A model generated the notes under the pieces. That model saw only the letters and a list, made by a program, of their open reading frames with translations. It was not told the DNA's origin and made no database searches. The position numbers were made by a program, and so were the translations under genes. A stretch of DNA of 64,000 nt from Patescibacteria group bacterium (lineage in GTDB: Bacteria; Patescibacteriota; Patescibacteriia; JAHIZJ01). The stretch lies in contig JBAZUB010000003.1 in the NCBI GenBank assembly GCA_041661625.1, positions 69,004 through 133,003 on the forward strand. The letters run 5' to 3'. Position 1 is the first letter of the stretch; the number at the start of each line of letters is the position of its first letter. Of the stretch, positions 9,527-55,837 are shown piece after piece.

Positions 9527-9551
9527 GACGGGGACCTTCCTTTCCAGAGTT

Positions 9552-10235: not shown

Positions 10236-10321
10236 GCGTTTCCGGCGGGTTGAGAGATCGCTGGGTAGAGAAAGAGGGGGTCTTCAAGCGAAGACCCCGG
10301 GACGAAGTGGAAGGCGGGCGG

Positions 10322-11950: not shown

Positions 11951-12172
11951 ATGCAGACGATGACAAACGTACCCCAAAACACGTACGCCAACCCGACCGA
12001 CGGCAATACGTACTACCTTGCTTCGCTTGAGGACGGGAACAGCAAGGTTCTTTGGGCGTGTCCGACAAACCGCGACGGCTCGGCTGATTTCGTTTCAGCC
12101 ATCCCGGAAACCGACTTCGCCGAACCGCTCACACCCGATGATCGGGAGCGGATCGTGCGCGCTCTCACATAG
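11951..12172 (+). CDS. Small hypothetical protein (73 aa), opposite strand within a 460-bp intergenic region
   Basis: ORF in an otherwise noncoding gap. No motifs recognised. Confidence 0.3.
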   Translation: MQTMTNVPQNTYANPTDGNTYYLASLEDGNSKVLWACPTNRDGSADFVSAIPETDFAEPLTPDDRERIVRALT

Positions 12173-12207
12173 GAAAGCGCAAGGGAATCGTGAAGACGTG
12201 ATGCGCT

Positions 12208-12732
12208 TCACGAGTTTTGTCGTCTGGATAATTGGACGGCTACCGCAACTGCGAGTGCGTCAAACATATGAAGCCAGTACCTATCCTTGGGCTTGTAGCC
12301 GAGGACGGGATGCGGTGGCTCCTTCGGGAGCTTGATCCGAAGGTCCTCAAAGCCCATGCGGACGATGGCGTGTGCGACGTCGAACTTTTTCGCGTGGCGA
12401 TCACCGACCACGACTCGCCGCACGTCGGGCGGCGCTATCTCCAACACCCGGATGCCGAGTTCGCGAGATCGTGCCTGAAGTTCCTGGACGATCACCGAAA
12501 CGAGAGCGGCGCGTTTCGTAGGGACAAGCAGGGGCTTTTCGATTGCGACGACCGAGGGAGCGTGCTCGGCGACATACGACAGAATCACCCGACGAGCCTG
12601 GCCGATCACGTCGTGCGGCCGTTCTCCGTTGTGGAGGGTGTGGACGCCGAAGCCAAGAAGGGTCGAGCCCGTGATGACCACCGCTCCCATGTATTTCGTT
12701 CCAGGATCGATGCCGAGGATTTTTTCTTCCAT
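12208..12732 (-). CDS. RuvC-like Holliday-junction resolvase (phage-type), copy 1
   Basis: LGIDPGTKYMGAVV, VVAIEKP, C-terminal MFDALAVAVAV (RuvC D/E/D/H layout). Confidence 0.7.
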   Translation of the reverse strand: MEEKILGIDPGTKYMGAVVITGSTLLGFGVHTLHNGERPHDVIGQARRVILSYVAEHAPSVVAIEKPLLVPTKRAALVSVIVQELQARSRELGIRVLEIAPPDVRRVVVGDRHAKKFDVAHAIVRMGFEDLRIKLPKEPPHPVLGYKPKDRYWLHMFDALAVAVAVQLSRRQNS

Positions 12733-12904
12733 TGTTAATTGGCCGTTTAGATGGTGAGTACGAACGGGTTCCCTCCCGAGAGACCGCGACGGTGTGGACC
12801 CGGCTTGCGCGGGTGACCACGATGTCCGCGGCGGCGGTCCGCAAGACGGAAACCGCCTGGCTTTCCAGCCGAAGAATCGGCTCCGGGAGGGCTGTATGAG
12901 TGGT

Positions 12905-13405
12905 TCAGGCGGCCGTGGCCTGATGGTGAAGAGCGAGGGCGACGGCGTCGAACATGTTCTGGAAGTACGCTTCCTTCCAGCGGCGGTCTTGCGTGAGATA
13001 GACCCGCAGGGCGGGCAGGCGTCCGGCGACAGCCTCGGCCGTCTGGCGTTTGTTCGCCCAGCCGTGGCCGACGAGGCCCTTGCGGACGGTCTGGGGCGCG
13101 TATGTCGCGACCGTCAGCCCTTTCAGGGCAGCCATGCGGCGAACCCGACGGGCCAGACGGTCCAGCCGATCCAAGGAGTTCACGCGGTTCGGGTGGGTGG
13201 CTTCAAGGACGACGATCGAGGGTCTGAACTGACCGATCCAGTCGCCGATGGCCTTCACGGCGGCGGGGAGGCGCTGCTTCGATGGCAGCAACCGGAGCGG
13301 GAGGACTCCCGACTCGATCAGGGATCCTCCTCGGAGAATGGCGTACCCGAGGTCCCGGAGGCCGGGATCAAGGGCGAGGATCGTCTTCGCTGTGGCTTTG
13401 GGCAT
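12905..13405 (-). CDS. RuvC-like Holliday-junction resolvase, copy 2 (paralog)
   Basis: ILALDPGLRDLGYAIL, IVVLEAT, MFDAVALALHH. Start reassigned to the ATG at 13405; the track start at 13558 adds an implausible extension. Confidence 0.6.
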   Translation of the reverse strand: MPKATAKTILALDPGLRDLGYAILRGGSLIESGVLPLRLLPSKQRLPAAVKAIGDWIGQFRPSIVVLEATHPNRVNSLDRLDRLARRVRRMAALKGLTVATYAPQTVRKGLVGHGWANKRQTAEAVAGRLPALRVYLTQDRRWKEAYFQNMFDAVALALHHQATAA

Positions 13406-13922
13406 GGCGTTTGAGTAGATAAAGAAATAAAGCTGTGCGTGAGCGGCGGATCTCGGCCGCCGGAACGGCGAGGGTGCCGGCGAGCGCGCGTTTGATGATC
13501 GCGTCGTCGTGGAGCTCAAGCGCCGATTCGAGCGCTCCACGGTCCCCGTTCTCCCCAAGTGCTCGCTCCAGCTTCCCGATGGTGAAGAACCGTTTGATTT
13601 CCGGCGGCGATTCAGCCTGCGCCGGCAGCTGGGGAAGGTGCCGGACAGTCACGCGAACGGTTTGTCCGGAACGCTGGAGCCTCACATAGCGACGCGTTCG
13701 GAGATGGCCAAGCCAGCTTCGGACGGTTCCGTCGGGGAGCCCCATGGCGGAGGCGATCTCCGCCGTGTCCAGCTCCAGCGTGTTCTGGCCGGCGGGCAGT
13801 CGGACCAGAAGTCCGAGGTAGAGCCAGACGGCCGACCGCATCCGGCGGATGTGGAGCGCCTGCGGGTGCTCCAAGAGTCCTCGGTCGAGTCGGATTATAA
13901 TGGGCATCGGGTTTCGGGTCAT
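13368..13922 (-). CDS. Winged-helix DNA-binding protein (replication/regulatory), paralog A
   Basis: HTH IASAMGLPDGTVRSWLGHLRTRRYV. C-terminal motif IRRSRTALFLYLLKRH is shared with the next gene. Confidence 0.5.
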   Translation of the reverse strand: MTRNPMPIIIRLDRGLLEHPQALHIRRMRSAVWLYLGLLVRLPAGQNTLELDTAEIASAMGLPDGTVRSWLGHLRTRRYVRLQRSGQTVRVTVRHLPQLPAQAESPPEIKRFFTIGKLERALGENGDRGALESALELHDDAIIKRALAGTLAVPAAEIRRSRTALFLYLLKRHAQSHSEDDPRP

Positions 13923-14536
13923 AGGTGGCTGTCGATCTTCGTGATGAGGTAGCGGAAGAGAGCGAGCTTGGATTTCCTGATCTTCTCGAGCGGCGTGTTG
14001 CGTACCCGGTCGAGAGCGCGGGTAACATGATCGGGCGAGTGACGAGCGAGGATTGCTGGCAGCTCCGTTTCGACCTCGGGTCCGACAACCTCCCGGGCCA
14101 GCCGCGCCAGCGCCCCTTCCCCCGCACCCCCATCCCCGATAGCTATAGCCTGCTTGCCTGATAATTGCTTAGAACAGCTATTGCTATAGCTATCTTCAAT
14201 ATGTGATCCGGGAAAAGCTTCGGAATTGCTCTGATTCTCGCGCTCCGACGCCACTTCGCCAGACCACGAAACGAGGTGCGCGACAAGGTACGGCAATGGC
14301 GACTGCACGCGCACGAGTCCGGCATCAACGAGGCGAGATAGCCACCGATCGATCCGGTCTTCCTCCACACTTAGCTCCCGGGAAAGGCGGGCGCGGGTAC
14401 GAATCACCACTCCGTGTGATCCCGCGTGACGGATGAGAGCGAGGTAGAGAAACGCGCTGTTGCCGATCCGGTCAACGGGACGAGAAAAGTCGAGCACGGC
14501 GTCGAGAGCGCGGGTGGGAATACGTCGCTCGGTCAT
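13919..14536 (-). CDS. Winged-helix DNA-binding protein, paralog B
   Basis: LSRELSVEEDRIDRWLSRLVDAGLVRV. C-terminal IRKSKLALFRYLITK. Overlaps its neighbour by 4 nt (ATGA). Confidence 0.5.
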   Translation of the reverse strand: MTERRIPTRALDAVLDFSRPVDRIGNSAFLYLALIRHAGSHGVVIRTRARLSRELSVEEDRIDRWLSRLVDAGLVRVQSPLPYLVAHLVSWSGEVASERENQSNSEAFPGSHIEDSYSNSCSKQLSGKQAIAIGDGGAGEGALARLAREVVGPEVETELPAILARHSPDHVTRALDRVRNTPLEKIRKSKLALFRYLITKIDSHL

Positions 14537-14808
14537 CCTTCTTCGTGCTTAGATTTATCCTCACGCTTAGGGAAGTAAAGGGCAGCGTAAAGCGACTCCG
14601 CCAACGTCCCGAGGGATCGGGCCAGGCGGAACACGTTCGGCAGGCTCGGCAGGGAGCAGCCCCGCTCCCAGGCCGACACGATTGGCCGGCTCCTACCGAT
14701 AAGCTTTCCCAACATGGTCTGGGTGAGGCCAGCCCGAAGCCGGTATTCGCGGATGCGGTTCGGAAACCGGGCTGTGACTCTTGATCGGCGAAGGGTGAAT
14801 TGAAACAT
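14533..14808 (-). CDS. XRE-family HTH transcriptional regulator (repressor-like)
   Basis: IREYRLRAGLTQTMLGKLIGRSRPIVSAWERG. Start moved to the ATG at 14808 (MFQFTL). Confidence 0.7.
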   Translation of the reverse strand: MFQFTLRRSRVTARFPNRIREYRLRAGLTQTMLGKLIGRSRPIVSAWERGCSLPSLPNVFRLARSLGTLAESLYAALYFPKREDKSKHEEG

Positions 14809-14874
14809 GTACCAAGAATACAGACACGAACAGAAACCGAACAGAGGGGGTGAGGTGCATAACTGTTCGCCTCC

Positions 14875-14899
14875 TGTGGACAGCGGGCAGATATCCACA
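14875..14899. promoter_or_regulatory. 6-bp inverted repeat TGTGGA-N13-TCCACA in the divergent xre/small-ORF region; candidate operator
   Basis: Read directly from the sequence. Confidence 0.3.
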
Positions 14900-14965
14900 A
14901 AACAAGCCGCTTTCTGGACCTCTCGCACTCTACGACCGTTCCCGGAAGTGTGAGACGATTCGGGC

Positions 14966-15166
14966 ATGAATACCCCAAACGAGCCGTCCGACCATGATGC
15001 CGGGACCATACTCCCCCAGAAAGCAATCGACGACCTCAAGGCGATCTACCGCCGGAAATGCGGGTCGGATCTCTCCGACCATGACGCCAGGGAGATGAGC
15101 AACCGCCTCCTTCGTGTTTTCGCCGTGCTGACGCGCGAACCGACGGACCGGCGAGACCGAGTTTGA
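14966..15166 (+). CDS. Small hypothetical protein (66 aa) divergent from xre
   Basis: ORF only. Cro/antirepressor-like position. Confidence 0.35.
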   Translation: MNTPNEPSDHDAGTILPQKAIDDLKAIYRRKCGSDLSDHDAREMSNRLLRVFAVLTREPTDRRDRV

Positions 15167-15245
15167 ACCGCGTCCACCCGCCTATCTTGACGGGATCCGG
15201 GAGTTAATTCTACACTTCAACACTAAACATCTGACACCTAAGTCA

Positions 15246-16760
15246 TTGCCTTCCTATATCCTCTATGCGCGCAAGTCCTCCGAATCGGAGGATCGTCAAG
15301 TTCTCTCCATCGATTCGCAAGTCCGCGAATTGGAGGCCTTCGCGCAATCCCAGAACTTCACGGTTGCCTCGGTCCTGGCTGAGTCCCGCTCGGCCAAGGC
15401 CCCCGGCCGGCCGATCTTCGCGAAGATGCTCCGATCCGTCAGCCAGGGAAAGGCCGACGGCATCCTCTGCTGGAAGCTCGACCGCCTCGCCAGAAACCCG
15501 GTCGACGGGGCCGCCCTCATCTGGGCGGTCGACGAAGGCAAGCTCCGGGAGATTGTCACCCGGGACCGGGCCTTCCAGAACACCGGGAATGACAAGTTCT
15601 GGATGCAGCTCGAGTTCGGCATGGCCAAGAAGTACGTGGACGATCTCTCCGACAATGTCAAACGCGGCAACCGAGCCAAACTGGAGCAGGGCTGGCTCCC
15701 GGGGCTGCCCCCAATCGGGTATCTGAACGACGCGGTGACGCGGAAGATCGTTCGCGATCCGGACCGGTTCGACATTCTGCGGAAGATCTGGGACGCCGTG
15801 CTGGCCGGTGAGTCTCCCCTCGAAGTGCTTTCGACCGCCACCGACGAGTGGGGGTTACGCACGCGAAAACACCGGCGCACGGGGGGTAAGCCGCTCGGCC
15901 GGAGCAACTTCTATGTCATGCTCTCCAACCCATTCTACTATGGGCTGCTTGTTCGCAACGGTGAGTCCTATCCTGGATCGCACCCTCCCATGATCTCGCA
16001 GGACGAGTTCGACCGCGTCCAGGAGCTACTCGGCCGTCCGAATCGGGCACCGCAACGGCGGCACGAATTCGCCTTCACGGGACTGATCCGCTGCGAGGAG
16101 TGCGGCGCTTCGATCACCGCCGCGGAGACGGTGAATCGGTACGGCTACCACTACGCCTACTACCACTGCACGAAACGGAAGGCCGGCACTTCCTGCAGAC
16201 AGATGCCGATCCGCGAGGAAAAGCTGGAAACACAGATCCGCGAGGTATTGAGCCAGGTGGCCATTGACGACGACTATCGCGACTGGGCTTTGGAGAACCT
16301 TCGGATTGTCCACGAACGGGAAAGCAAGAGCCGGCAAACGGTGGACCGTTCCCTGGACGAGACTCACCGGGACGTTCAGAAGCAGATCGACGCGCTCCTC
16401 CAGGTCCGCCTCCGTGGATTGGTCACCGACGAGGAATATGCCGCCAAGAAGCACTCTCTTGTTTCCGAGAGCCTTCGATTGAAGGAACGCCTCGTCGACA
16501 CCGATGGCCGAGCCACCCGTGGGTTGAAACTTTTCGAGCAAGCGATATTGTTCGCACACCTAGCCCCGAAACGCTTCGCGGAGGGAACAACCGCGGAGAA
16601 GCGCGAGATTCTCATGGCCCTCGGTTCCAACCTCTTGCTCAAGGACAGAACTCTGCGAATCCAACTGCAAAAACCCTTCCACCTGATCGGGGAAGGGCGG
16701 CACAGTATTTCCTGGTACCGGAGGAGGGACTTGAACCCTCAATCCCTTACGGGAACGTGA
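15246..16760 (+). CDS. Large serine recombinase (integrase)
   Basis: Resolvase-domain catalytic region YARKSSESEDRQVLSIDSQ, recombinase domain, zinc ribbon CEECGASI...YHCTKRK, C-terminal coiled-coil region. TTG start. The last about 16 codons are encoded by the tRNA-Leu sequence. Confidence 0.85.
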   Translation: MPSYILYARKSSESEDRQVLSIDSQVRELEAFAQSQNFTVASVLAESRSAKAPGRPIFAKMLRSVSQGKADGILCWKLDRLARNPVDGAALIWAVDEGKLREIVTRDRAFQNTGNDKFWMQLEFGMAKKYVDDLSDNVKRGNRAKLEQGWLPGLPPIGYLNDAVTRKIVRDPDRFDILRKIWDAVLAGESPLEVLSTATDEWGLRTRKHRRTGGKPLGRSNFYVMLSNPFYYGLLVRNGESYPGSHPPMISQDEFDRVQELLGRPNRAPQRRHEFAFTGLIRCEECGASITAAETVNRYGYHYAYYHCTKRKAGTSCRQMPIREEKLETQIREVLSQVAIDDDYRDWALENLRIVHERESKSRQTVDRSLDETHRDVQKQIDALLQVRLRGLVTDEEYAAKKHSLVSESLRLKERLVDTDGRATRGLKLFEQAILFAHLAPKRFAEGTTAEKREILMALGSNLLLKDRTLRIQLQKPFHLIGEGRHSISWYRRRDLNPQSLTGT

Positions 16761-16799
16761 TTTTGAGTCACGCGCGTATGCCAATTCCGCCACTCCGGC
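16713..16799 (-). tRNA. tRNA-Leu (anticodon CAA), 87 nt including encoded CCA
   Basis: The reverse complement gives GCCGGAGTGGCGGAATTGGCATACGCGCGTGACTCAAAATCACG...GGGTTCAAGTCCCTCCTCCGGTACCA. It has a long variable arm and a T-loop TTCAAGT. G1-U72 is a wobble pair at the acceptor end facing the island. Confidence 0.85.
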
Positions 16800-16868
16800 A
16801 TGATTTCTTAAACTTACATTGTCAACGATTTTGCCCAGCACCACTCACTTTGTTCGGATGCTGGGCGC

Positions 16869-16881
16869 GAGTCACGCGCGT
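16869..16881. repeat. 13-nt copy (GAGTCACGCGCGT) of the tRNA-Leu D/anticodon-arm segment, about 100 bp beyond the tRNA 5' end
   Basis: Identical to 16765-16777. The following about 14 nt are also similar to the tRNA. Confidence 0.5.
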
Positions 16882-16945
16882 CTTCCAACTTGCCCCGTAA
16901 CGAACGAGCCTGGCGAGTTCTGTTGCGGGGTTCCCCCCGGGGCTC

Positions 16946-16992
16946 GTCCCGCTCAGCGGGACACGCCCGTCCCCGCCTGCCAAAGCACAGCG
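16946..16992. repeat. GC-rich element: hairpin GTCCCGC-TCA-GCGGGAC plus the 21-mer CCCGCCTGCCAAAGCACAGCG, which is also found next to tRNA-Val
   Basis: The 21-mer at 16972-16992 is identical to 35862-35882. Confidence 0.6.
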
Positions 16993-17127
16993 GCGGGCAG
17001 GTCGATGGCCGCGAGTGAAGCAGTTCACTCGCTATCCCGCACGGCGGGATGCCATCTCGACCCACTCCGGCCTCAATTGGGCAGGATGTATTATGCTCTA
17101 AAATGTGCGATAACGTGTTTGCTGGTT

Positions 17128-17157
17128 CGTAGGCGAACAAGCGCTTGTTCGCCTACG
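17128..17157. promoter_or_regulatory. 30-bp perfect palindrome CGTAGGCGAACAAGC|GCTTGTTCGCCTACG upstream of parA. An AT-rich tract with TTAATTA repeats follows at 17220-17340.
   Basis: Read directly. Possible operator, terminator or origin-proximal element. Confidence 0.4.
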
Positions 17158-17396
17158 GTTGTGTTTAAACGAACGACCGTGTTTCCACAAATGCAGGATG
17201 CTCTGCTATTGGCGTGTAATTCGCATTAATAATATGTAAAATAAGCCGATTTGTCAATTATTCCAGTTAATTAACCATTTAATTAAAAGGTTAATTGGCG
17301 GGTGTGGTCTATCGCTCGATAAACATTGAATAATCATCGTTTTCCTTGTATAATAATAGCAGTTGCTAAGACAATGACGCAGCTTGTGTTATACCC

Positions 17397-24817: not shown

Positions 24818-25193
24818 AAAACAGGGTGAATCACCCTGACGCCACTACTAGTTTAGCAGATTCTACAAAACTGACAAGAAAAATAGAATCAAGATTAGCT
24901 AAACAACATTACGCAAAACGTTGGATTGAAATATTGGCAAACCTTTTCGCGAAAACCTGCCCGCTCGTGTCTCGCAGTGGCAGGCGGGGGTGAAAAGGTG
25001 CTAATATTGGCTTAATAATAGATGGTACCGTTGACATAGTTGAGTGTTTACACTAACATCACATATTCTGGCTCTTTAATAATTCTGGCAGTCTTAGCCA
25101 ATAGCGTTTGATAACATCAAGGGTTACTGGCTATGACTGCCACAAAAGTGGTGGCCCTCTGGCAATGTGTTCAAAACCCAAAGGAGGCCAGCC

Positions 25194-25904: not shown

Positions 25905-25926
25905 TAGTGTAGTCAAAATACTTAAC

Positions 25927-26077
25927 GCAAACCTCCCCCATACTCACCGGCTTATTCAAATAACACAAAGTGGGCTGGTACTACAAACGGTCCTCTCCTT
26001 AATTAAGGAGGGGACGCGTTGGAGTATCATGCTATACTTGAAATTGCTTTAGGGTTTGTGAGTATGGGGGAGGTTTG
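25927..26077. repeat. About 150-bp element bounded by 21-bp perfect inverted repeats (GCAAACCTCCCCCATACTCAC / GTGAGTATGGGGGAGGTTTGC)
   Basis: Arms at 25927-25947 and 26057-26077. An inner palindrome CCTCTCCTTAATTAAGGAGGGG. It lies just 3' of the mfd stop codon. Confidence 0.6.
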
Positions 26078-26086
26078 CGTGTCGGT

Positions 26087-35231: not shown

Positions 35232-35346
35232 GAGAGAAATATTCAATTGATAGATGATACAAAAACGTTGTCAGTATATCAGCTAACCGGATATATAGCC
35301 ACGTAAGGGTGTCATCCGCCTTCGGTAAAGGGTCGAATATTGACAT

Positions 35347-35375
35347 TTGCAATTACTTAAAAAAAGTGCTATACT
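35347..35375 (+). promoter_or_regulatory. Sigma70-like promoter TTGCAA-N17-TATACT upstream of the tRNA-Val locus
   Basis: Read directly. Confidence 0.35.
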
Positions 35376-35491
35376 ATACCTACTTTTTGCGAAAGTTAGC
35401 CAAGAATTGAGAGTTAATTAGTATAATTGGTTAATTAGTTGATTAGGTTTCGATTACTAAGTTAGTTGCTTTCACAACGTCTTTTATTTAA

Positions 35492-35614
35492 GGGTGATTA
35501 ACTCAGTTGGGCCCCGCTTTGCGGGGCGGGCAGGAGTGAACCAGCCCATAGGGCGCAGTGAACGTCGGCTGCTCCGAGCGTGCGCAGGAGCAGACGCTGC
35601 CCAGGATAGAGCGC
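35492..35614 (+). pseudogene. Truncated tRNA-Val-like 5' fragment (GGGTGATTAACTCAGTTGG ... TAGAGCGC) with a 95-bp GC-rich insert in the D-loop
   Basis: 18 of 19 nt are identical to the real tRNA-Val 5' end, and the segment after the insert resumes with tRNA D-stem sequence. No anticodon, T or acceptor 3' parts follow. The insert (35511-35605) starts with the hairpin GCCCCGC-TTT-GCGGGGC. Confidence 0.55.
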
Positions 35615-35645
35615 ACCATTGAAATATATATCAATGTTTTTTCGA

Positions 35646-35722
35646 GGGTGATTAGCTCAGTTGGTTAGAGCGCTGTCCTCACACGACAGAGGTCCCTGGT
35701 TCAAATCCAGGATCACCCACCA
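35646..35722 (+). tRNA. tRNA-Val (anticodon CAC), 77 nt including CCA
   Basis: GGGTGATTAGCTCAGTTGGTTAGAGCGCTGTCCTCACACGACAGAGGTCCCTGGTTCAAATCCAGGATCACCCACCA. Cloverleaf checked by hand. Confidence 0.9.
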
Positions 35723-35861
35723 GTCTACGCTTATAGCGAAAGATGTCCACCGAAGCTTCAAGCGTAGGTGGACAAAAGTATTGTTTGTTGCTTTATCCAA
35801 TCATGATACTTCGGCTGGCGGGGCCCCCTAGGAATGAGCGCACGATTCACACCCGCCTGCC

Positions 35862-35938
35862 AAAGCACAGCGTCTGCCTGTCGGCAGACAGGGCAGACAG
35901 GGCGGGCGGGTTCGTGAGGTCGCCCCGCTAAGCGGGGC
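35862..35938. repeat. GC-rich element downstream of tRNA-Val: the 21-mer CCCGCCTGCCAAAGCACAGCG plus hairpin GCCCCGC-TAA-GCGGGGC, an inverted copy of the start of the 35511-35605 insert
   Basis: The 17-nt GCCCCGCTT(T/A)GCGGGGCG is shared, inverted, with 35511-35528. The 21-mer is shared with 16972-16992. CAGACGCTG / CAGCGTCTG is also shared. Confidence 0.6.
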
Positions 35939-35983
35939 ATCGTCCACCACGGGCCAAAGCTCGAAAATTAATACGCTAAACCA

Positions 35984-36418
35984 TTGGAAAATATTTTCAA
36001 TAATCTGATACTGGAGTTACACGTTCCGGATTTCGTAAAAGCGCGTAAGTTTTATTCTACGTTTAATTTCCATCAAATAAGTTATATTCCAGCTGGCAGC
36101 GAATTAGGATATATGGTATTGGCACGCATCGACACAATTGGAAAAACGTGTATAAATTTCTATGGTGATAACGAGAGAGTGGCTCGACATACACATTTTG
36201 CAGATTATCCCACAGGAACGCCGCGTGGGTATGCTGTGGAAATTACAATTCCAGTATCAAATGTCGAAGAATTATGGAAATTAGCAAATAGCGTTTTGGA
36301 TTCATCTCAGATCGCTCAACCTCTGGAACTAAAGCGCTGGGGTAAAAAAGATTTTAGAGTAGTCGATCCATTTGGTTTCTATGTCCGATTTACAGAGCTA
36401 GTCGACTGGTTCAATTAA
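35984..36418 (+). CDS. VOC/glyoxalase-bleomycin-resistance family protein
   Basis: VDPFGFYVRFTE C-terminal motif. 144 aa. TTG start. Confidence 0.6.
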   Translation: MENIFNNLILELHVPDFVKARKFYSTFNFHQISYIPAGSELGYMVLARIDTIGKTCINFYGDNERVARHTHFADYPTGTPRGYAVEITIPVSNVEELWKLANSVLDSSQIAQPLELKRWGKKDFRVVDPFGFYVRFTELVDWFN

Positions 36419-36456: not shown

Positions 36457-37110
36457 ATGACATTCTTAGACAAAATCAATCAACCGAGAACGGGTACGCC
36501 CGAAGAAGCGAAGTCCGATAAGCAAATGGAGTCTAAGGGTGGTCTGTCATTTTTCGCGTCGATGGGCGGATTCGCCCTGGAAATAGTCAAGGTGGTGGTA
36601 ATATCACTGGCGATTATCATTCCCGTGCGGTATTTCCTGATTCAGCCGTTTTACGTCAAGGGCGCGTCGATGGAGCCGAGTTTTTACGATAATCAATATC
36701 TGATGATCGATGAAATAAGCTATCGGTTTGCCGAACCGCATCGGGGTGATATCATAGTTTTCAAATATCCCGAGAATCCCAGTCAGTTTTTCATCAAGCG
36801 GGTGATCGGCGTACCGGGTGAGACGGTCGAAATCCGCAACGGCCACGTGATTATTTATAATACGCAGGCACCGCGCGGCGAGGTATTGGACGAAAGCCCT
36901 TATTTGGCAGCCGATGTCTACACTTCGGGCAATGAAACCGTCGAATTAAAATCAAACGAGTTTTACGTGATGGGCGATAACCGCGAGCAGAGTCTGGATT
37001 CGCGCCGGATTGGCCCGATCACGAAAAACTATATTGTTGGTCGGACCTGGATCAGAGCTTGGCCGCTAAACAAATGGCAGGTATTTCACGACCCAGCCTA
37101 TAATCTGTAA
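36457..37110 (+). CDS. lepB: Signal peptidase I
   Basis: GASMEPSF (catalytic Ser), GDIIVFKYP, FIKRVIGVPGE, MGDNREQSLDSR. Confidence 0.9.
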   Translation: MTFLDKINQPRTGTPEEAKSDKQMESKGGLSFFASMGGFALEIVKVVVISLAIIIPVRYFLIQPFYVKGASMEPSFYDNQYLMIDEISYRFAEPHRGDIIVFKYPENPSQFFIKRVIGVPGETVEIRNGHVIIYNTQAPRGEVLDESPYLAADVYTSGNETVELKSNEFYVMGDNREQSLDSRRIGPITKNYIVGRTWIRAWPLNKWQVFHDPAYNL

Positions 37111-40035: not shown

Positions 40036-40052
40036 ATATTGGGCAGTACATC

Positions 40053-40105
40053 ACATAACAGCGTGTATTCGATATTTTTACATCGCATACACGCAAACGT
40101 TGTAC
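40053..40105 (+). repeat. attC-like element 2: ACATAAC-AGCGTGTATTCG...CATACACGC-AAAC-GTTGTAC
   Basis: 5' box and 3' box, with inverted L segments. Confidence 0.5.
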
Positions 40106-40129
40106 GCCATAACAAATTATTGCAAGTTT

Positions 40130-51322: not shown

Positions 51323-54300
51323 ATGGGAGGACCAATACCAAAAACTAACCAAAAATACTGGAGAGGCTTTGTGCTGGGAGCCGGCATCTGGTGTCTGCTG
51401 CTTTTGGCCGTTATTCTAGTCTGGCCGTACCGATTTGCCTGGGCGGCGACTTTTGACAGTAATACCGGTAGTGCTCTGGGCTTAGGTACGGTGCCGTTGG
51501 ACCAGGTAGTACGGAACATTATCCGCTGGGCGCTGGGATTTTTGGGTCTGATCGCGGTGATTATGGTCATTTATGGCGGCTTTTTGTGGATGACCGCGGC
51601 GGGCAATGAGCAGCGGATCGAAAAGGCCAAGAAGATTATCATGGGCGCGATCATTGGCCTGGTTATAATATTGTTGTCTTTCGCCATAGTGCAGTTTGTA
51701 TTTTTCGGTGTGACAAATTCTACCGGAAACGGAAATGACAATACTAACGGCGGCCCACCGCCGGATGGTGGTGATAGCGCTCAGTTCTATGTCCGGCTCG
51801 TCTCACCGCACGAGGATGAAGACAATGTTTCATTATGCCGCTTCGTTCAGGGCGTATTTAACCGCCAGATCAACCAATCGACTGGCGCACTGACACTGAC
51901 CCAGGTGGACAATGGCCAAGCAGTCGCGGGCGCCATCACCTACCAGGATGGCAATAAGATAAAACTGGACCCGAGCGCCGATCTGGCTCCGCAAAAACAA
52001 TACCGCGCTTTAATACCCGACACAGTCGAGGATTCATCCGGCAATCAGCTGGATCAGCAGAAAGAGTGGTATTTTACGACCGGTTCCGAGTCGGATAATG
52101 AGCCGCCGCGGGTATTTGATACCTGGCCCGATACGGGCGCGACGGATATCTGCCTGTCCACGCCGATTGTGGTCGAGTTTAATGAACCGATGGATCTGTC
52201 TACTCTGATTGTGGCCAATGTCACGGTCGCCGGTCCCGGCAACCCGCAGGTCAGGTCGGTGGATATTCCCAACGATCGCACAATGGCGATCACATTGAAT
52301 TCGCCCTTGGAACCCAACCAGGATTACACGGTGACTTTAAACGGCGCGCCGGGGCATATTGCCGATGCCTGCGGTAATCCACTGGACGGTAATGGCGACG
52401 GTACGGGCGGTGATAATTATGACTGGTCATTTACGACCGGCATTGGCGCTGATTGCGCCCCCAAGATCAACTCGATCAGCGGATCGGGCTACTATGAGAC
52501 CGACGTGACGATCGAGGGCACGAATTTTACCAGCATTCCCACCACGACGGTGTTTAATAACGACGCTACGGCTTTTAATAACTGTTTCAATGCCAGCTAT
52601 ATTCCTAACGCGGTTTGTGTCAAAGAGTGGACTAATACGCGTATTAAAGTCACCCTACCGGCCAGCGGCGGCGCCAGCAACGGCGCCATCGACGGTCTGG
52701 TTAAGGTTAGGGTAGGTGCGCTGGAAAGCAACGGCAAGGATTTTGACGTCAAGGCGCCGCACGTCAGCCAGGTCAACCCGGCCAGCGGCGGACCGGGGCA
52801 ATTCGTCACCATCACGGGAACAAATTTCGGCAGCAGCGCCGGCCGGGTGCTATTCCGCAAGACCGGTGATCCGGATATCGAGGGTGATCGGCCATCCTGC
52901 TCGTCTTGGTGGCAAAATGATCAGATTATTGTCAAAGTACCGGAAGGTTTCAGCCTCAATGACGTTACACAAATACAGATTGATACTTCGGGCAACCGCC
53001 GTTCCAATCTGGAAGATTTTCAAATAACGAACCAAGTTGGGCCGGGATTATGTTCGATCACCCCGGCTTGCGGTGGTGCGGATACTGATGTCACATTAAT
53101 CGGCGAGGCATTAGGCGGCGCCGGCCAGCTGAAATTCGACGGTACAACGGCTGACACCACGGTCTGGACCGAAGGCCAGATCAAGGGCAAGGTACCGGAT
53201 ATCGCCGACAGCGTAAATCCTTATTCGGTCACCGCGACTGTCGGCGGACTGGTCAGCAATGGGCTGCCATTCCACAAACCCTGTGGAACCGGCGATGATG
53301 GCGAACACCGCGCCTGCGCTGGCGCTACTTGTATCACCGCTTCCGGTGAGGCGCCCGATGAATGCGCTAACGACTCGCAATGTACCGGCACAAACACTCA
53401 CTCAGAATGCGCCGGCGCGATGTGCAACGTAGTTGATGGCGCGGGCGCCAATCAATGCGACACACCCGATGACTGTGATGGCGAACACCGGGCTTGTGCC
53501 GGTACCAGCTGTATAACCGTTTCGGGCGAAGCGGCCGACGAATGTACCGACGATTCGCAATGTACAGACGCGAATACCCACTCGGAATGCGCCGGCGCGA
53601 TGTGCAACGTAGTTGATGGCGCGGGCGCCAATCAATGCGACACACCCGATGACTGTGATGGCGAACACCGGGCTTGTGCCGGCACAACCTGTATTACCGC
53701 CTCAGGCGAAGCCCCAGACGAGTGTTCCAATGATTCCCAGTGCACCGACGCGAATACCCACTCGGAATGCGCCGGCGCGATGTGCAACGTAGTTGATGGC
53801 GCGGGCGCCAATCAGTGTGCCGTGCCGGATGACTGTGCCGGATCGGGTACGGACTGCGACTCCGACCCTGCTACGCCGGCTTGCCAGCCAGGCGCCTGCC
53901 CTGTGGGAGAAACTTGCCGCGATACAGATTGCCGTTGTTGGGTATTGCCCTCCTATGCCTGCAGTACTACCCAGTGGAGCTGCACGCCCAATCCGGCGGG
54001 TTGCGCTGCTACGCAAGGATGTTTGAATGATTGTTCTTGCGCCGACAGGCCAACGTTGACGAGCAGCATTCCTGCGAATCTCAGTGTCGACATATGTCGC
54101 AATGTTCAGTTCAGCTGGACTTTTTCGGAGACAATGAGCGGTTCTTCGGCTGACAATGATGCTATTCAGCTAACGATCGATGGCGGAGCCGCGGCAGGTG
54201 CTGCATGCAGCGTGGACAAAGATTGCGCATCGGATAATTGCAGCAGCAATCTCTGTGTCGGCAGCGTAGTCAGGGGTAGCTACTCCCAGCCATCCGATAA

Positions 54301-55837
54301 GCACAACATCTATGGAAACTTTGGCTTACTGGAGGCTGACACGGATTATCGAACCAAACTGCTGGGTTTGGCCAACGGTGTTTTGAGCACCGACGGTTTG
54401 GGTATGACCAGCGATGTCGAGTATACGTTCAAAACCTCCACCGCGATTTGTGATGTCAATCAAGTTAGGGTCGATCCGAGCAGTTGGCAATTTGTCCAGC
54501 GGGATGCCTCGAGGATGTTTACCGCTTCGGCTTACCATGGCGACCAGATGATCCTGTCCATTCCCGGTGTGTATGAATACAATTGGACTTGGTCAACGGA
54601 TGACGCCACGATTATAGTTGTCGGTCCGATCAATGTTGCGGCGACGGTGGGAACCATCCAAAACAAGAACGGCAGCACCCGAATCAACGCCAAGGCTTCC
54701 GTGACTACCCCCGGCAAGGAAAAGGAGGTTACCGGCCGGGCGGAAATACGGGTCAATATGTGCGAACACCCCTGGCCCGATCCGGGTGCCGGATTATTCG
54801 TGCCATTTACCGATGCTGACACGCACTTTTCTTTCTGGTACTGCACTGACGATGGATTGCCGATGATTACAAATGTTACCAATGGATCCAGCGGTGCTGA
54901 CCTAATCAAGGAATATTTCTTTAATGGTTTGCATGTCTGTGAGGGCGCGGCCAAAGCCTGCACGGTAGACGCGGATTGTGACGGCATGGCCTGCACGGTG
55001 CTGCCGGATGCGGTTGGCGTACGTGTAATGACGAACCCGAATAGTCAATCACCCAAACTTTGGTATGAAAAAAGATTACCCAATGAGCCGATCCCCAGCG
55101 GCGCCGAGCGGACCATTGATGGTTTTCAGTCCATTCGAGTCGGTCGGACTAGCTATGTCGATGCGGCTAATTCCTACTTTGATGGTGCCTGGCATACTTA
55201 TACCAATATTTATCTACTGTCCTTCAGTGAGAATTCGAAATCTGTAACCCAGGAGGTAGCCAACGCATTGATCGGGAACTGGAAATTTGTCACCAATGCG
55301 GGTGTTGATTTTGGCGATTTTGCCAAACCCTGGCTGATACGTGACACCAAGCGGTTGGCCGACTTAGCCGATATTGAGCACTATCTGGACGATTATCGGG
55401 CTACCAGTAGCACCTATCCCAATCTGCAAGCCGGCAGCTATCTAACACGACGGTCCACTAGCGCCTGGCCATCATGGCAAGCTTCCTTGGGTAACGCATT
55501 GGGCAAGGGATTGCCCACTGACCCGTTGAACTTGTTTTTGTACGGCTCCGGCCCGGGTACGTGTGAGGTGCCGCCGTATGATCACGATACCTGTTGGTGG
55601 GGCAATAAGACTCTGTACCCGACTGACGGTGGCCGGTTCACCTGCCAGGCCAACTCGCATGTTTATATGTACAATTTCGTTCCCGATCCGGCCGACCCCG
55701 CGCTCGATAAGTCCTATTTGTACACGATGCTAGAATATCCGCAATGGGGTGCGCTGGCACCAGCTAATCCATGTGCCGGTTTAGCCGATGGCTCTAGTTG
55801 CGCTTGCTTTAATTACACCAGAGAAGTCACACCATAA
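51323..55837 (+). CDS. Giant (1504 aa) cell-surface protein: signal peptide, VirB2/TrbC-pilin-like two-helix N-terminal module, Ig-like/beta-rich region, three Cys-rich 60-aa tandem repeats
   Basis: AWA|A signal peptidase site. IYGGFLWMTAAGNEQRIEKAKKIIMGAIIGLVIILLSFAIVQFVF. Repeats DGEHRACAG.CIT.SGEA.DEC..DSQCT..NTHSECAGAMCNVVDGAGANQC..PDDC. Confidence 0.7.
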   Translation: MGGPIPKTNQKYWRGFVLGAGIWCLLLLAVILVWPYRFAWAATFDSNTGSALGLGTVPLDQVVRNIIRWALGFLGLIAVIMVIYGGFLWMTAAGNEQRIEKAKKIIMGAIIGLVIILLSFAIVQFVFFGVTNSTGNGNDNTNGGPPPDGGDSAQFYVRLVSPHEDEDNVSLCRFVQGVFNRQINQSTGALTLTQVDNGQAVAGAITYQDGNKIKLDPSADLAPQKQYRALIPDTVEDSSGNQLDQQKEWYFTTGSESDNEPPRVFDTWPDTGATDICLSTPIVVEFNEPMDLSTLIVANVTVAGPGNPQVRSVDIPNDRTMAITLNSPLEPNQDYTVTLNGAPGHIADACGNPLDGNGDGTGGDNYDWSFTTGIGADCAPKINSISGSGYYETDVTIEGTNFTSIPTTTVFNNDATAFNNCFNASYIPNAVCVKEWTNTRIKVTLPASGGASNGAIDGLVKVRVGALESNGKDFDVKAPHVSQVNPASGGPGQFVTITGTNFGSSAGRVLFRKTGDPDIEGDRPSCSSWWQNDQIIVKVPEGFSLNDVTQIQIDTSGNRRSNLEDFQITNQVGPGLCSITPACGGADTDVTLIGEALGGAGQLKFDGTTADTTVWTEGQIKGKVPDIADSVNPYSVTATVGGLVSNGLPFHKPCGTGDDGEHRACAGATCITASGEAPDECANDSQCTGTNTHSECAGAMCNVVDGAGANQCDTPDDCDGEHRACAGTSCITVSGEAADECTDDSQCTDANTHSECAGAMCNVVDGAGANQCDTPDDCDGEHRACAGTTCITASGEAPDECSNDSQCTDANTHSECAGAMCNVVDGAGANQCAVPDDCAGSGTDCDSDPATPACQPGACPVGETCRDTDCRCWVLPSYACSTTQWSCTPNPAGCAATQGCLNDCSCADRPTLTSSIPANLSVDICRNVQFSWTFSETMSGSSADNDAIQLTIDGGAAAGAACSVDKDCASDNCSSNLCVGSVVRGSYSQPSDKHNIYGNFGLLEADTDYRTKLLGLANGVLSTDGLGMTSDVEYTFKTSTAICDVNQVRVDPSSWQFVQRDASRMFTASAYHGDQMILSIPGVYEYNWTWSTDDATIIVVGPINVAATVGTIQNKNGSTRINAKASVTTPGKEKEVTGRAEIRVNMCEHPWPDPGAGLFVPFTDADTHFSFWYCTDDGLPMITNVTNGSSGADLIKEYFFNGLHVCEGAAKACTVDADCDGMACTVLPDAVGVRVMTNPNSQSPKLWYEKRLPNEPIPSGAERTIDGFQSIRVGRTSYVDAANSYFDGAWHTYTNIYLLSFSENSKSVTQEVANALIGNWKFVTNAGVDFGDFAKPWLIRDTKRLADLADIEHYLDDYRATSSTYPNLQAGSYLTRRSTSAWPSWQASLGNALGKGLPTDPLNLFLYGSGPGTCEVPPYDHDTCWWGNKTLYPTDGGRFTCQANSHVYMYNFVPDPADPALDKSYLYTMLEYPQWGALAPANPCAGLADGSSCACFNYTREVTP
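53297..53836 (+). repeat. 3 x 180-bp in-frame tandem DNA repeats inside the giant surface-protein gene; about 105 nt are identical between successive copies
   Basis: Period exactly 180 bp (53477 to 53657). Confidence 0.85.

Follow-up and report, generated by a model that had tools for sequence, protein, structure and literature searches.

How a complete tRNA-Val gene came to lie between tRNA fragments and blocks of GC-rich DNA is the question raised by this locus of a Patescibacteria (CPR) MAG. Bacterial tRNA genes are regarded as uninterrupted, group I introns aside, and tRNA gene turnover is usually ascribed to duplication or to integrases that rebuild the 3′ end. We analysed a stretch of 64,000 nt (the window), together with related genomes; a second assembly of the same organism (L006) was 100% identical. 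The genes around tRNA-Val were those of an LPG-synthase-like protein, LytR, Der, lepB and hisS. We favour, with a probability of about 50%, the reading that one tRNA gene was replaced by another here and that GC-rich palindromic modules, which seek out loops, colonised the scar. The features of the locus are given below, T4 being the type of the intact gene (GGGTGAT...ATCACCCACCA) and T1 that of a second, apparently older tRNA-Val(CAC) (GGACGAT...ATCGTCCACCA).

35340..35399, forward strand: promoter-like site, TTGACA... with an extended -10 TGCTATACT at 35367-35375 (promoter scan).
Within 35340..35399, forward strand: transcript start CTTTTTGCGAAAGTTAG, conserved (sequence comparison with relatives).
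35492..35510, forward strand: 5′ fragment of tRNA-Val, positions 1-19, GGGTGATTAACTCAGTTGG (18/19 identity to 35646-35664).
35511..35606, forward strand: GC-rich insert A in the D-loop, 96 nt (72% GC; fold; orthologue in L018).
35607..35621, forward strand: 5′ fragment continued, D-stem 3′ strand and T1-type anticodon stem 5′ strand, TAGAGCGCACCATTG (repeat 35600-35620 versus 35827-35847).
35646-35722, forward strand: intact tRNA-Val(CAC), type T4 (ARAGORN; Rfam tRNA, 71.1 bits).
35723..35804, forward strand: spacer with two overlapping hairpins, CTACGCTT/AAGCGTAG and TGTCCACC/GGTGGACA (inverted repeats).
35805..35833, forward strand: GATACTTCGGCT and GC-rich GGCGGGGCCCCCTAGGA, at the expected place of the old acceptor 5′ strand and D-arm (sequence).
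35834..35851, forward strand: T1 D-stem 3′ strand, anticodon stem 5′ strand and loop to nt 37, ATGAGCGCACGATTCACA, anticodon CAC (16/16 versus the L015 outer tRNA).
35852..35910, no strand assigned: module H, a hairpin of 59 nt set exactly at the 37/38 junction (repeats, fold, junctions).
35911..35921, forward strand: T1 nt 38, anticodon stem 3′ strand and variable region, TTCGTGAGGTC (12/12 versus L015, including the next G).
35922..35938, no strand assigned: h1 hairpin GCCCCGC-TAA-GCGGGGC in place of the T-arm (sequence, tRNA alignment).
35939..35949, forward strand: T1 acceptor 3′ strand, discriminator and CCA, ATCGTCCACCA (12/12 versus L015, including the preceding C).

The site at 35340..35399 was the sole promoter-like site found by the scan on the forward strand upstream of the whole array, and its TGnTATAAT-N7-ACTTTTTGCGAATATTAG arrangement recurred in L007, L010, L015 and L016. 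The intact tRNA-Val(CAC) is presumably functional. In the spacer behind it, 61 nt were 90% identical to L013, and ATGTCCACC is a possible relic of a T1 3′ end. At the gathering threshold, Rfam recognised only the two tRNAs in the window, and known ribozymes, group I introns, tmRNA and large ornate RNAs were rejected as candidates; at E <= 10, no family besides tRNA appeared in 35300-36050 or 16650-17300. The 10 kb to the right of the window held no tRNA, and its AT-rich spacers held no GC modules; a plasmid collection searched with distant BLAST matched the tRNA itself only.

Upstream of the intact gene, the initial annotation had described a near-exact copy of tRNA-Val positions 1-19, followed by a 95-bp GC-rich insert in the D-loop. 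The copy is real: 18 of its 19 nucleotides (GGGTGATTAACTCAGTTGG) match tRNA-Val(CAC), a match found nowhere else in the 64 kb, and it spans the acceptor 5′ strand, the D-stem 5′ strand and the start of the D-loop. The insert is also where it was placed, with TAGAGCGC behind it, but measures 96 nt. Its GC content (72%) contrasts with the 28% of the leader upstream. It begins with the h1 hairpin GCCCCGC-TTT-GCGGGGC (35511-35527), and the remainder is predicted to fold into a branched domain closed by GGGCAG/CTGCCC, enclosing the hairpin CTGCTCC-GAGCGTGCGCA-GGAGCAG. L018 carried an orthologous insert at the same D-loop site, directly after CAGYTGG; 49 of 51 bases of its 3′ part were identical to insert A (96%) and h1 differed by a compensatory change, although the lepB proteins of the two genomes are only 69% identical. 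At this same site L013 had a different insert. Behind insert A, TAGAGCGC and the ACCATTG that follows it fit the T1-type anticodon stem (GAGCGCACGATTC), not that of the neighbouring intact gene (GAGCGCTGTCCTC), and tRNA homology stops at about the anticodon loop. Repeat D2 links 35600-35620 with 35827-35847 (81% identity, a score reached by 2 of 500 shuffles) and, read from the sequence, GGGUGAU of the 5′ fragment can pair with AUCGUCC at 35939-35945 through two G-U pairs among others. The piece at 35492-35621 is the 5′ part of a gene of the same older type, T1, as the block downstream.

That downstream block had been taken for the inverted counterpart of the insert. It is instead a degenerate tRNA-Val, because it matched the outer tRNA of L015 in exact blocks of 16/16, 12/12 and 12/12; on this alignment, 35805-35949 is the 3′ two-thirds of the older T1 gene, which ends in ATCGTCCACCA in L010 and L074 as well. 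The motif GATGCTTCGGC at its start (35805..35833) recurred in L013, L016 and L007. H sits between junctions 35851/35852 and 35910/35911, with arms CCCGCCTGCC and GGCGGGCGGG, a loop starting with AAAGCACAGCG and a nested hairpin GTCTGCCTGTCGGCAGAC, in the orientation opposite to that in L015. Further on, h1 fills exactly the 17 nt of the T-arm and lacks the T-loop consensus. ARAGORN accepted no tRNA from the T1 pieces after in-silico removal of the modules. The 5′ fragment represents positions 1 to about 34-37 and the 3′ fragment about 21-76; a 21-nt core (81% identity) is present in both.

The modules were not confined to tRNA-Val. The initial annotation had pointed to a 21-mer, CCCGCCTGCCAAAGCACAGCG, common to the tRNA-Leu flank, and it was indeed present at 35852 and at 16972, where none is expected by chance. 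The additional features are the following.

16713..16799, reverse strand: intact tRNA-Leu(CAA) (ARAGORN, Rfam).
16833..17071, reverse strand: 5′ half-copy of tRNA-Leu, upstream of the intact gene (same anatomy as the tRNA-Val locus).
24956..24988, forward strand: H-like hairpin CCTGCCCGCT-CGTGTCTCGCAGT-GGCAGGCGGG in an AT-rich palindrome (ACCTTTTCGCGAAAA...GAAAAGGT), with no tRNA nearby.

The tRNA-Leu half-copy starts with GCCGGAGTGG (17071-17062), is interrupted in the D-arm by a 171-nt insert of 70% GC, and resumes as AGTTGGAAGACGCGCGTGACTC (16890-16869), which ends in the anticodon loop and is followed by a GC hairpin (16866-16833). Its insert contains module H (16972-17001) and an h1-type hairpin (16946-16962). 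The alignments showed the anatomy of the tRNA-Val locus, the homologies of its parts and the modules that it has in common with tRNA-Leu. The consensus of h1, found at 16946, 35511, 35922 and in L018, is GYCCCGC-NNN-GCGGGRC. That of H is CCTGCCCGCC-loop-GGCAGGCGGG; within the window it occurred at 16972-17001, at 35852-35910 (inverted and expanded) and, in H-like form, at 24956-24988, and outside it in L013, L015, L073, L001 and L004. H was identical over 30-33 nt between the tRNA-Leu flank and two MAG contigs labelled as Bacteroidota, and in L004 two inverted copies flanked a fragment of a GxxExxY / PD-(D/E)XK gene. A 20-mer scan of the genome collection returned five matches, two of them true H copies; those in L002, L003 and L005 lay inside GC-rich coding DNA and were discarded as chance. 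The viral collection gave no match to the H core or the insert A core. Four of the five hairpin copies found lie in tRNA gene remnants. Several metagenome contigs end inside these GC blocks.

In several related genomes, hairpin modules were present in D-loops and exactly at 37/38 of tRNA-Val, in both orientations, with exact junctions and no target-site duplication at those of the window and the relatives. The proposal that small hairpin modules enter tRNA genes is hence sustained by the D-loop and 37/38 sites, the several genomes and the tRNA-Leu half-copy, whereas the two inverted copies of one element that went with it are not. It had also been suggested that recombinase or TnpB-like genes might accompany the repeats. 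Near tRNA-Val we found no transposase, integrase, nuclease, recombinase or TnpB-like gene, and six-frame motif searches of the window found no GIY-YIG or GxxExxY protein. A single recombinase was present in the window; this large serine recombinase (15246-16760) lies beyond tRNA-Leu on its opposite (3′) side, within a 60% GC island of large serine recombinases, a TrwB-like protein and methylases; more of this GC-rich island fills the 7.8 kb left of the window.

The relatives showed the older gene in several states. T1 was the only intact tRNA-Val at the lepB-hisS locus of six more distant relatives (L056, L058, L068, L078, L089 and L090); in the window, L010, L015 and L074 it was the disrupted one of the pair. 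In L015, L016 and L073 a complete tRNA-Val lay inside the anticodon loop (37/38) of another tRNA-Val, and the same nesting was seen in L014 as far as its contig extends. The boundary stem of the nest, CCTGCCYGCC...GGCAGGCGRG, was common to these four and to the tRNA-Leu flank. Intron-allowing ARAGORN was silent on the outer genes because the inner gene masks the outer one, and in-silico removal of the inserts was used in its place: the outer gene of L015 was then recognised as tRNA-Val(CAC) and that of L016 as a tRNA with anticodon CAT, both nearly undamaged. The outer halves in L015, L016 and L073 abut exactly at 37/38, with no shared core. In L013, the closest relative, the T1 remnant lacked H. 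Filled 37/38 sites (TTCACA-H-TTCGTG) differed from empty ones (TTCACATTCG) solely by the insert. Comparison of these relatives shows that insertions at 37/38 were independent and repeated. L047 had a 5′ half-copy of tRNA-Val with a GC insert in the D-arm, and a GIY-YIG nuclease gene between this fragment and the intact tRNA; its fragments overlap like those of the window, and the unit duplicated there extends over 14 nt of the upstream flank.

Under the replacement reading, the older resident T1 gene would have been split and the newer complete tRNA-Val (35646-35722) would have taken over, leaving the 5′ part of T1 upstream (35492-35621) and its 3′ two-thirds downstream (35834-35949). The short GC-rich palindromes h1 and H and the larger insert A would then have colonised these remains. 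The modules may enter loops of hairpin-forming DNA or RNA precisely and without target duplication, their putative targets being the D-loop, the 37/38 site of the anticodon loop, the T-arm and loops within other modules. In relatives, module H holds a whole tRNA-Val in its loop, and the nested gene would disrupt the resident gene and replace it. A single conserved promoter, at about 35340-35375, seems to serve the whole array, and the T1 fragments would be leader and trailer of the working tRNA. In the predicted leader-trailer stem beside the inner tRNA, three adjacent double changes keep the pairing (GCUGGU/ACCAGC in L015 versus GUCAGU/ACUGAC in L007), a covariation that speaks for selection on structure. 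Between-species comparisons suggest that the modules are mobile at the DNA level, and the old tRNA pieces are probably without function. Several observations count against the scar: a selected RNA function would better explain the strong conservation of insert A and the exact 17-nt swap of the T-arm by h1, L015 and L016 have outer tRNAs that could still be used, one H-like copy (24956) lies outside any tRNA gene, and the lack of a mobility gene at tRNA-Val is joined by a 21-nt fragment overlap and a further repeat that blur the exact history.

Some of these observations would be accounted for if the modules and fragments were functional RNA parts of one long tRNA-lepB-hisS transcript, a reading that we consider rather unlikely. 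The hairpins would then serve as processing stems (RNase III-type cuts, as in rRNA intervening sequences), stabilisers or decoys for RNase P/Z, and nesting would allow one promoter to yield the inner tRNA, or two tRNAs. Strong folds were predicted, with z scores of -4.7 (35806-35950), -5.3 (nest of L015) and -6.2 (entire array of the window): in the L015 transcript one cloverleaf would stand on the anticodon arm of another, and in the global fold of the window array the two copies of h1 can form 17 bp with each other, enclosing the tRNA. The covariation of the leader-trailer stem between L015 and L007, the 96% identity of the 3′ part of insert A with L018 over 51 nt at the same D-loop site, the compensatory change in h1, the single promoter and the almost intact outer tRNAs of L015 and L016 point the same way. 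Yet the leader-trailer stems are missing in many relatives, and the kind, size and orientation of the modules vary even among close ones, as in L013, with its other D-loop insert and no H. Nor does such a role sit well with H beside a nuclease gene fragment in unrelated genomes, the failure of ARAGORN to accept a tRNA from the window pieces, or the lack of an Rfam family even at E <= 10.

An origin by integration and loss of larger elements is improbable. Integrative elements would have entered the anticodon-arm region of tRNA-Val and tRNA-Leu and later been deleted, the GC-rich DNA being their ends. The 21-nt overlap of the 5′ and 3′ fragments (81%), with L047 alike, agrees with such attachment-site scars, as does the resemblance of 35615-35635, just after the core, to 35980-36001 (a further direct repeat), like a hybrid junction; at tRNA-Leu, moreover, the 60% GC island, which might have split the old gene, adjoins the intact one, and its recombinase ORF overlaps the 3′ part of the tRNA. 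However, only 24-110 bp separate the tRNA-Val fragments from the intact gene, no integrase lies near, and neither the island nor the 7.8 kb beyond the window yielded a 3′ piece of tRNA-Leu. Halves that abut at 37/38, as in L015, L016 and L073, are not a product of reciprocal site-specific recombination; identical H and h1 at unrelated sites are left unexplained, and the window and L013 together suggest that H entered without duplication of a tRNA core. Local tandem duplication of parts of the tRNA gene, with GC-rich filler of no identity, would produce partial copies in direct orientation on both sides, as observed, and the 14 nt of flank in the L047 unit are in keeping with it. This history, which the initial annotation had named as the alternative, is highly improbable and largely refuted by module recurrence: the filler is not random, since H recurs exactly at tRNA-Leu and in other genomes, insert A is conserved in L018 and h1 is found at four places, and the fragments are of T1 type, not copies of the adjacent intact gene. 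The original picture of one hairpin-ended mobile element, bracketing the intact tRNA as two inverted copies in the manner of transposon ends or a recombination substrate, is hardly credible. GCCCCGCTTTGCGGGGC (35511) and its inverted counterpart GCCCCGCTAAGCGGGGC (35922) do exist, with 0.02 matches expected by chance, and the two h1 copies pair in the global fold. But alignment of the insert region with the reverse complement of the downstream block returned only the self-complementary hairpin, at best 18 nt with 17 identical; the two GC blocks have this 17-18-nt hairpin and one 10-mer in common and nothing else, and because the hairpin is self-complementary the relative orientation of its copies is undecidable. 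Past it, the downstream block aligns as tRNA, and relatives show other arrangements with no such bracket.

The replacement reading can be extended into a general, tentative proposal: Patescibacteria may carry previously undescribed loop-seeking GC-rich hairpin elements, precise in tRNA genes at 37/38 and the D-loop, that could also bring a complete tRNA gene without promoter into the anticodon loop of a resident of the same specificity. Taken furthest, the proposal would have a bacterial splicing or fragment-assembly route still mature the interrupted outer tRNAs. If true, tRNA genes would turn over by 'disrupt-and-replace', and the elements would be a bacterial counterpart of archaeal transposable tRNA introns. 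The hairpins occupy tRNA loop positions used by archaeal and eukaryotic introns, and whole tRNA genes are nested in others; if the modules are mobile, they would represent new tRNA-directed selfish DNA in the most gene-poor bacteria known, and the origin of tRNA introns and split tRNAs would become testable. There are practical effects as well: such remnants and nested genes mislead tRNA annotation, and metagenome assemblies break at them. In the literature, incompletely covered, we found no account of tRNA genes nested in one another or of bacterial tRNA genes with hairpin inserts.

Several known systems resemble the locus in part. Like tRNA-targeting integrative elements, it has inserted DNA flanked by partial direct tRNA copies (here with the 21-nt core at 81%) and the anticodon arm as junction. 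Integrases fall into anticodon-loop and T-loop site classes, and classical elements bring along the 3′ part of the tRNA and so restore it; in the window, by contrast, the old gene was left broken beside a complete new one, the insert is about 100-300 bp, and tRNA-Val has neither an integrase nor element-sized DNA between the repeats. The intervening sequences of bacterial 23S and 16S rRNA likewise take the place of a loop in a stable RNA, or lengthen one, as extended stem-loops that sometimes hold a small ORF. They are known from rRNA and not from tRNA; RNase III cuts them out and the ends stay unjoined, a break that would not be tolerated in an anticodon loop. Some REP, MITE-type and Rickettsia palindromic elements insert into functional genes. 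Like the modules, these are small non-coding imperfect palindromes in either orientation (PMC3733652 for REP), and H is such a palindrome, present in several copies and both orientations. Unlike REP/REPIN, H and h1 showed no GTAG/CGTC tag, no RAYT gene was seen within the window, and their copy number in 64 kb is very low.

Group I introns of Patescibacteria tRNA genes, which standard tRNA finders miss, share with the modules the phylum and the anticodon-loop position (PMC13011429). The modules differ in being hairpins of 20-96 nt (or a tRNA gene); the inserts of 96, 59 and 17 nt fall short of the group I size of about 200 nt or more, and Rfam RF00028 found no match. Thermoproteales and Nanoarchaeum provide examples of archaeal tRNA introns and split tRNAs. 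Archaeal tRNA introns ('transposed' ones at non-canonical positions among them) and split tRNAs share with the modules the canonical 37/38 position, the D-loop, GC-rich complementary ends and the occurrence of related inserts in different positions and genes (PMC4090602). H lies at 37/38 in the window, L015, L016 and L073. At the L015 junctions, however, a hand-drawn fold gave no bulge-helix-bulge, a motif of two 3-nt bulges on either side of a 4-bp helix: nt 32-35 (UUCA) make only two of four pairs with the intron bases ahead of the 3′ junction, and the insert ends pair with each other straight from the junction. The host is a bacterium, for which we know of no splicing endonuclease, and, unlike in archaea, an intact copy of the same tRNA was always present. 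The GC clusters of yeast mitochondrial DNA, double-hairpin elements and other fungal and sponge mitochondrial hairpin elements are short GC-rich palindromes in AT-rich spacers that, like the modules, evolve fast, merge and nest, can lie inside stable-RNA genes and have no transposase of their own known (PMC4478555, PMC2800124). They are organellar, and GC clusters spread through spacers with a putative target-site duplication, whereas the modules of the window reside in a free bacterial genome, insert precisely in tRNA loops (D-loop, 37/38) and include one that can carry a whole tRNA gene.

The window comes from a metagenome-assembled genome of the Patescibacteria (CPR): the product of its lepB gene (36457-37110) is 100% identical to the NCBI entry 'MAG: signal peptidase I [Patescibacteria group bacterium]', and the relatives of this protein bear the same NCBI label (Patescibacteria group bacterium). 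The tRNA-Val locus lies among genes of ordinary chromosomal type: its left-hand neighbours encode Mfd, peptidyl-tRNA hydrolase, Der, LytR and an LPG-synthase-like protein, and lepB and hisS follow to its right. Of 80 related metagenome loci, about 35 have a tRNA-Val(CAC) gene in front of lepB-hisS, as do most loci retrieved via protein look-ups. The structure of the locus is not a one-off assembly error, because L006, another assembly of this organism, matches the window at 100% identity across 13.3 kb that include it. Two intact tRNA genes are considered here:

35646-35722, intact tRNA-Val(CAC), type T4 (ARAGORN and Rfam, 71 bits)
16713-16799, minus strand, intact tRNA-Leu(CAA) (ARAGORN and Rfam)

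According to the initial annotation, the GC-rich blocks on the two sides of the intact tRNA-Val were inverted copies of one mobile element. When the region around insert A, the GC-rich insert in the D-loop of the upstream tRNA-Val fragment, was aligned locally with both strands of 35780-36000, only a self-complementary hairpin of 17-18 nt was returned, and the only other piece common to both blocks was a 10-mer. It was the comparison with relatives that revealed the identity of the downstream block. The related locus L010 carries, directly 3' of its intact tRNA, a second tRNA-like gene that lacks a D-arm and ends in ATCGTCCACCACGGG, while L015 contains a gene of the same type that is complete yet interrupted, which we named T1 (GGACGATTAGCTCAGTTGGTTAGAGCGCACGATTCACA ... 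TTCGTGAGGTCGGAGGTTCAAGTCCTCCATCGTCCACCA). The window block at 35834-35949 matches T1 in three exact pieces:

T1 piece 1, GAGCGCACGATTCACA, 16/16 identical
35852-35910, 59-nt hairpin between pieces 1 and 2, exactly between nucleotides 37 and 38 of the anticodon loop (37/38)
T1 piece 2, TTCGTGAGGTCG, 12/12 identical
T1 piece 3, CATCGTCCACCA, 12/12 identical

In this remnant, the 17 nt of the T-arm are substituted by the hairpin GCCCCGCTAAGCGGGGC, and the acceptor 5' strand and the D-arm by GC-rich sequence. T1 is the sole intact tRNA-Val at the locus in six relatives (L056, L058, L068, L078, L089 and L090), which identifies it, by sequence comparison, as the older resident and the T4 gene at 35646, common to the closest relative L013, as the newcomer. 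Directly 3' of the remnant lies a 144-codon ORF (35984-36418) with a borderline glyoxalase-fold match (E = 9e-4); it is not annotated as a gene in the record of the other assembly, L013 has no space for it, and its start falls within a 22-nt repeat of 35615-35635.

On the upstream side, 35492-35510 proved to be the described near-copy of the first 19 bases of tRNA-Val, with 1 change, and no further partial copy was found in the window with any tRNA 20-mer at up to 4 mismatches. The GC-rich D-loop insert is present as claimed (35511-35606, 72% GC against 28% GC in the leader), although its length is 96 nt and not 95, and the tRNA register does pick up again after it, with TAGAGCGC. Past the D-arm the fragment is of T1 type, with GAGCGCACCATT like GAGCGCACGATT and unlike GAGCGCTGTCCT of the adjacent intact gene, and its GGGUGAU could pair with the downstream AUCGUCC using two G-U pairs. 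A relative with 69% lepB identity (L018) has an insert at the matching D-loop site (after CAGCTGG, against CAGTTGG in the window); the final 51 nt of this insert are 96% identical to insert A, and its h1 hairpin differs from that of insert A by a compensatory change from C-G to U-A. Since the remaining spacer sequence is unalignable, the likeness may reflect either selection or recent transfer, the covariation coming from n = 2 sequences only. The insert that L013 carries at this D-loop site is another one, with the hairpin module H inside.

Upstream of the minus-strand tRNA-Leu, GCCGGAGTGG is followed by a 171-nt insert (70% GC) that holds H and h1, and then by AGTTGGAAGACGCGCGTGACTC (18/20 identical to the gene), a GC hairpin, an AT-rich promoter-like spacer and the intact gene. 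Both window tRNA loci therefore share a half-copy pattern, in which an upstream 5' half-copy ends in the anticodon loop and has a GC insert in its D-arm. In L047, a more distant locus (lepB identity 55%), the D-loop of a 5' tRNA-Val fragment contains a GC hairpin of 52 nt, and the duplication of the tRNA 5' part includes 14 nt of upstream flank. At L047 30-590, the broken and the intact tRNA-Val are separated by a GIY-YIG nuclease gene of 85 codons (Pfam E = 2.5e-17), whose stop codon lies within the first bases of the intact tRNA-Val, and a 3' tRNA fragment beginning at the D-stem is found 3' of the intact tRNA. A 60% GC island adjoins the 3' end of tRNA-Leu, covering window positions 1-16760 and continuing 7.8 kb to the left in contig L101. 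One of its ORFs, at 15246-16760, encodes a large serine recombinase and overlaps tRNA-Leu, on the opposite strand, by the last 48 nt of the tRNA gene. The island also encodes DNA methylases, DUF932, RadC and a PD-(D/E)XK nuclease and, outside the window, a TrwB-like coupling protein, a second serine recombinase and a CBASS-type SMODS gene; it is probably an integrative mobilisable element.

Module H is a 30-nt hairpin (CCTGCCCGCC-GCTGTGCTTT-GGCAGGCGGG) whose two arms form the ends of the inserts in the nested genes of L015 and L073. Copies of H without cargo ('empty'), of the smaller module h1 and of a similar hairpin were located as follows:

16972-17001, minus strand, 'empty' H in the tRNA-Leu flank of the window
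D-loop insert of L013, 'empty' H
contig L001, labelled Bacteroidota, 'empty' H
contig L004, labelled Bacteroidota, 'empty' H
35511, 35922, 16946 and in L018, module h1 (GYCCCGC-NNN-GCGGGRC)
24956-24988, H-like GC hairpin at the centre of an AT-rich palindrome (spacer, no tRNA nearby)

The initial annotation was right about the hairpins at 35511 and 35922 and about the 21-mer that recurs in the tRNA-Leu flank: all are real and far above chance. At L004 3866-4135, a truncated GxxExxY / PD-(D/E)XK gene lies between two inverted H copies, each then followed by GAGAACACAGAGAA, with H plus 14 further bases on both flanks; the modules may have an autonomous relative in this unit. Within the downstream block of the window, H has the orientation opposite to that in L015 and a further hairpin in its loop. 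L013 (lepB identity 79%) has the array of the window (5' fragment, T4 and conserved spacer), and in its T1 remnant the anticodon arm is plain, with no H; either H would have entered the window remnant after T1 broke, or it would have been lost precisely in L013. The absence from L013 together with the opposite orientation in L015 points to repeated, independent insertion of H at the same inter-nucleotide position. Between filled and empty sites the insert is the only difference, with no target duplication. Given the copy at 24956-24988, the modules do not occur in tRNA genes exclusively, and their target may be hairpin loops of any kind, for which tRNA genes are the chief source in these spacers; in the 10 kb beyond the right end of the window, ordinary AT-rich spacers contained none. 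Another conserved GC-rich module (TTAGGGCGCATGCCCCTTTCCCCAC, a hairpin and ATGGGG) occurs 3' of tRNA-Val at L010 5860-5930 and L018 195-245, and the changes in its hairpin are fully compensatory (GACATCGGAATGTC vs CCGTCGGAACGG).

Other repeats were also observed. Between 39500 and 47000, about 10 copies of an imperfect 60-75-nt palindrome (e.g. 40047-40117, CATCACATAACAGCGTGTAT...ATACACGCAAACGTTGTACG) lie 0.5-2.3 kb apart in 37-44% GC DNA, separated by small ORFs that mostly have no Pfam matches or encode methyltransferases. This looks like an integron-type gene-cassette array with attC-like sites; no integrase gene was seen for it, and the second assembly of the genome breaks at 39744, right where it starts. 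Three tandem 180-nt repeats (53296-53835, 79-84% identity) are found within a 1504-codon ORF (51323-55837) with pilin-like and Big_5 domains. The spacer before mfd (25925-26080) contains a perfect 23-nt inverted repeat (ACGCAAACCTCCCCCATACTCAC and its complement, 110 nt apart) with a second palindrome (the TTAATTAAGGAGGGGAC region) in its middle. Some 3 kb past the right end of the window, at 12960-13670 of contig L099, five copies of the palindromic motif TTCACGAAAAGGTGAAT, probably an operator array, surround an uncalled ORF resembling a small transcription regulator.

In relatives, the 37/38 position holds whole tRNA genes. T1 of L015 is interrupted there by CCTGCCCGCCGCTGGT, a complete tRNA-Val (GGGCGGC...GCCGCCCACCA) and GCTTTGGCAGGCGGG. 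In L016 the outer gene is of the GGGCGGC type, with a 20-nt hairpin in its D-loop, and its insert of about 170 nt at 37/38 encloses a third type of tRNA-Val. The same nesting, with different tRNA types, is seen in L073 and, as far as the contig extends, in L014. After in-silico removal of the inserts, ARAGORN recognised the outer gene of L015 as tRNA-Val(CAC) and that of L016 as a tRNA with anticodon CAT. The predicted fold of the L015 transcript (-84 kcal/mol, z = -5.3) places a cloverleaf on the extended anticodon arm of another cloverleaf, and the stem beside the inner tRNA remains paired although L015 and L007 differ in it by three adjacent double changes. The nested contigs were obtained in different studies and with different assemblers, a point against chimeras. 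A third partial tRNA-Val (GCTCGTGTAGCTCAGTGGTTATGGTGCC, L015 2925-2960) lies 3' of the nest after about 200 nt of GC-rich hairpins, and it corresponds to the 5' part of the tRNA type that forms the inner gene in L016.

Our main reading, to which we give roughly even odds (about 0.5), is that an old tRNA gene was replaced by a new one and that its pieces were colonised by loop-seeking GC-rich modules. Pieces of the old gene persist around the new one, their loops are occupied precisely by GC-rich palindromic modules, and these modules recur in identical form at unrelated sites and in other genomes and bound the nested tRNA genes of relatives. The modules would be selfish loop-seeking DNA, or RNA-derived DNA, able to carry a promoter-less tRNA gene. 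Such a cassette would destroy and replace its target and persist only in a gene of the same specificity; inner and outer genes would both be tRNA-Val because only these landings survive. The newcomer would be co-transcribed from the resident promoter: one promoter-like site (extended -10), conserved in relatives, lies 117 nt upstream of the 5' fragment, and none was found between this fragment and the intact tRNA-Val. The window would represent an old, decayed state of such a replacement. The spread may be nuclease-driven, as the GIY-YIG gene of L047 and the fragmentary PD-(D/E)XK gene of L004 hint; a six-frame motif search of the window found no GIY-YIG or GxxExxY nuclease genes.

The conservation of insert A and the strong predicted folds would also fit functional RNA, with the modules acting as processing or stabilising elements of a long transcript, but their turnover between close relatives speaks against this explanation, which we consider unlikely. 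Still more doubtful is that the fragments are att-site scars left by deleted integrative elements: the 21-nt overlap of the tRNA fragments and a junction-like repeat are compatible with it, whereas the exact 37/38 nests and the lack of an integrase contradict it. Random GC-rich filler and an inverted bracket of one element around the intact tRNA-Val are both essentially excluded. The initial observation is real at the sequence level, and its proposal that small hairpin elements target tRNA genes was right in spirit; its main structural claim, the inverted bracket, was wrong. On the reading of replacement and colonisation, the modules would be selfish palindromic elements, unusual in what they target and, in relatives, in the cargo they carry.

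The searchable, incomplete literature yielded no account of nested tRNA genes, nor of bacterial tRNA genes with hairpin inserts at 37/38 and in the D-loop. Group I introns have recently been described in Patescibacteria tRNA genes (PMC13011429), but the modules reported here match no ribozyme model and differ from them in size and position. Archaeal tRNA introns are nearest in position, although the modules have no bulge-helix-bulge motif. Nearest in behaviour are mitochondrial GC clusters and hairpin elements (PMC4478555, PMC2800124), together with bacterial REP/MITE repeats and the Rickettsia palindromic elements.
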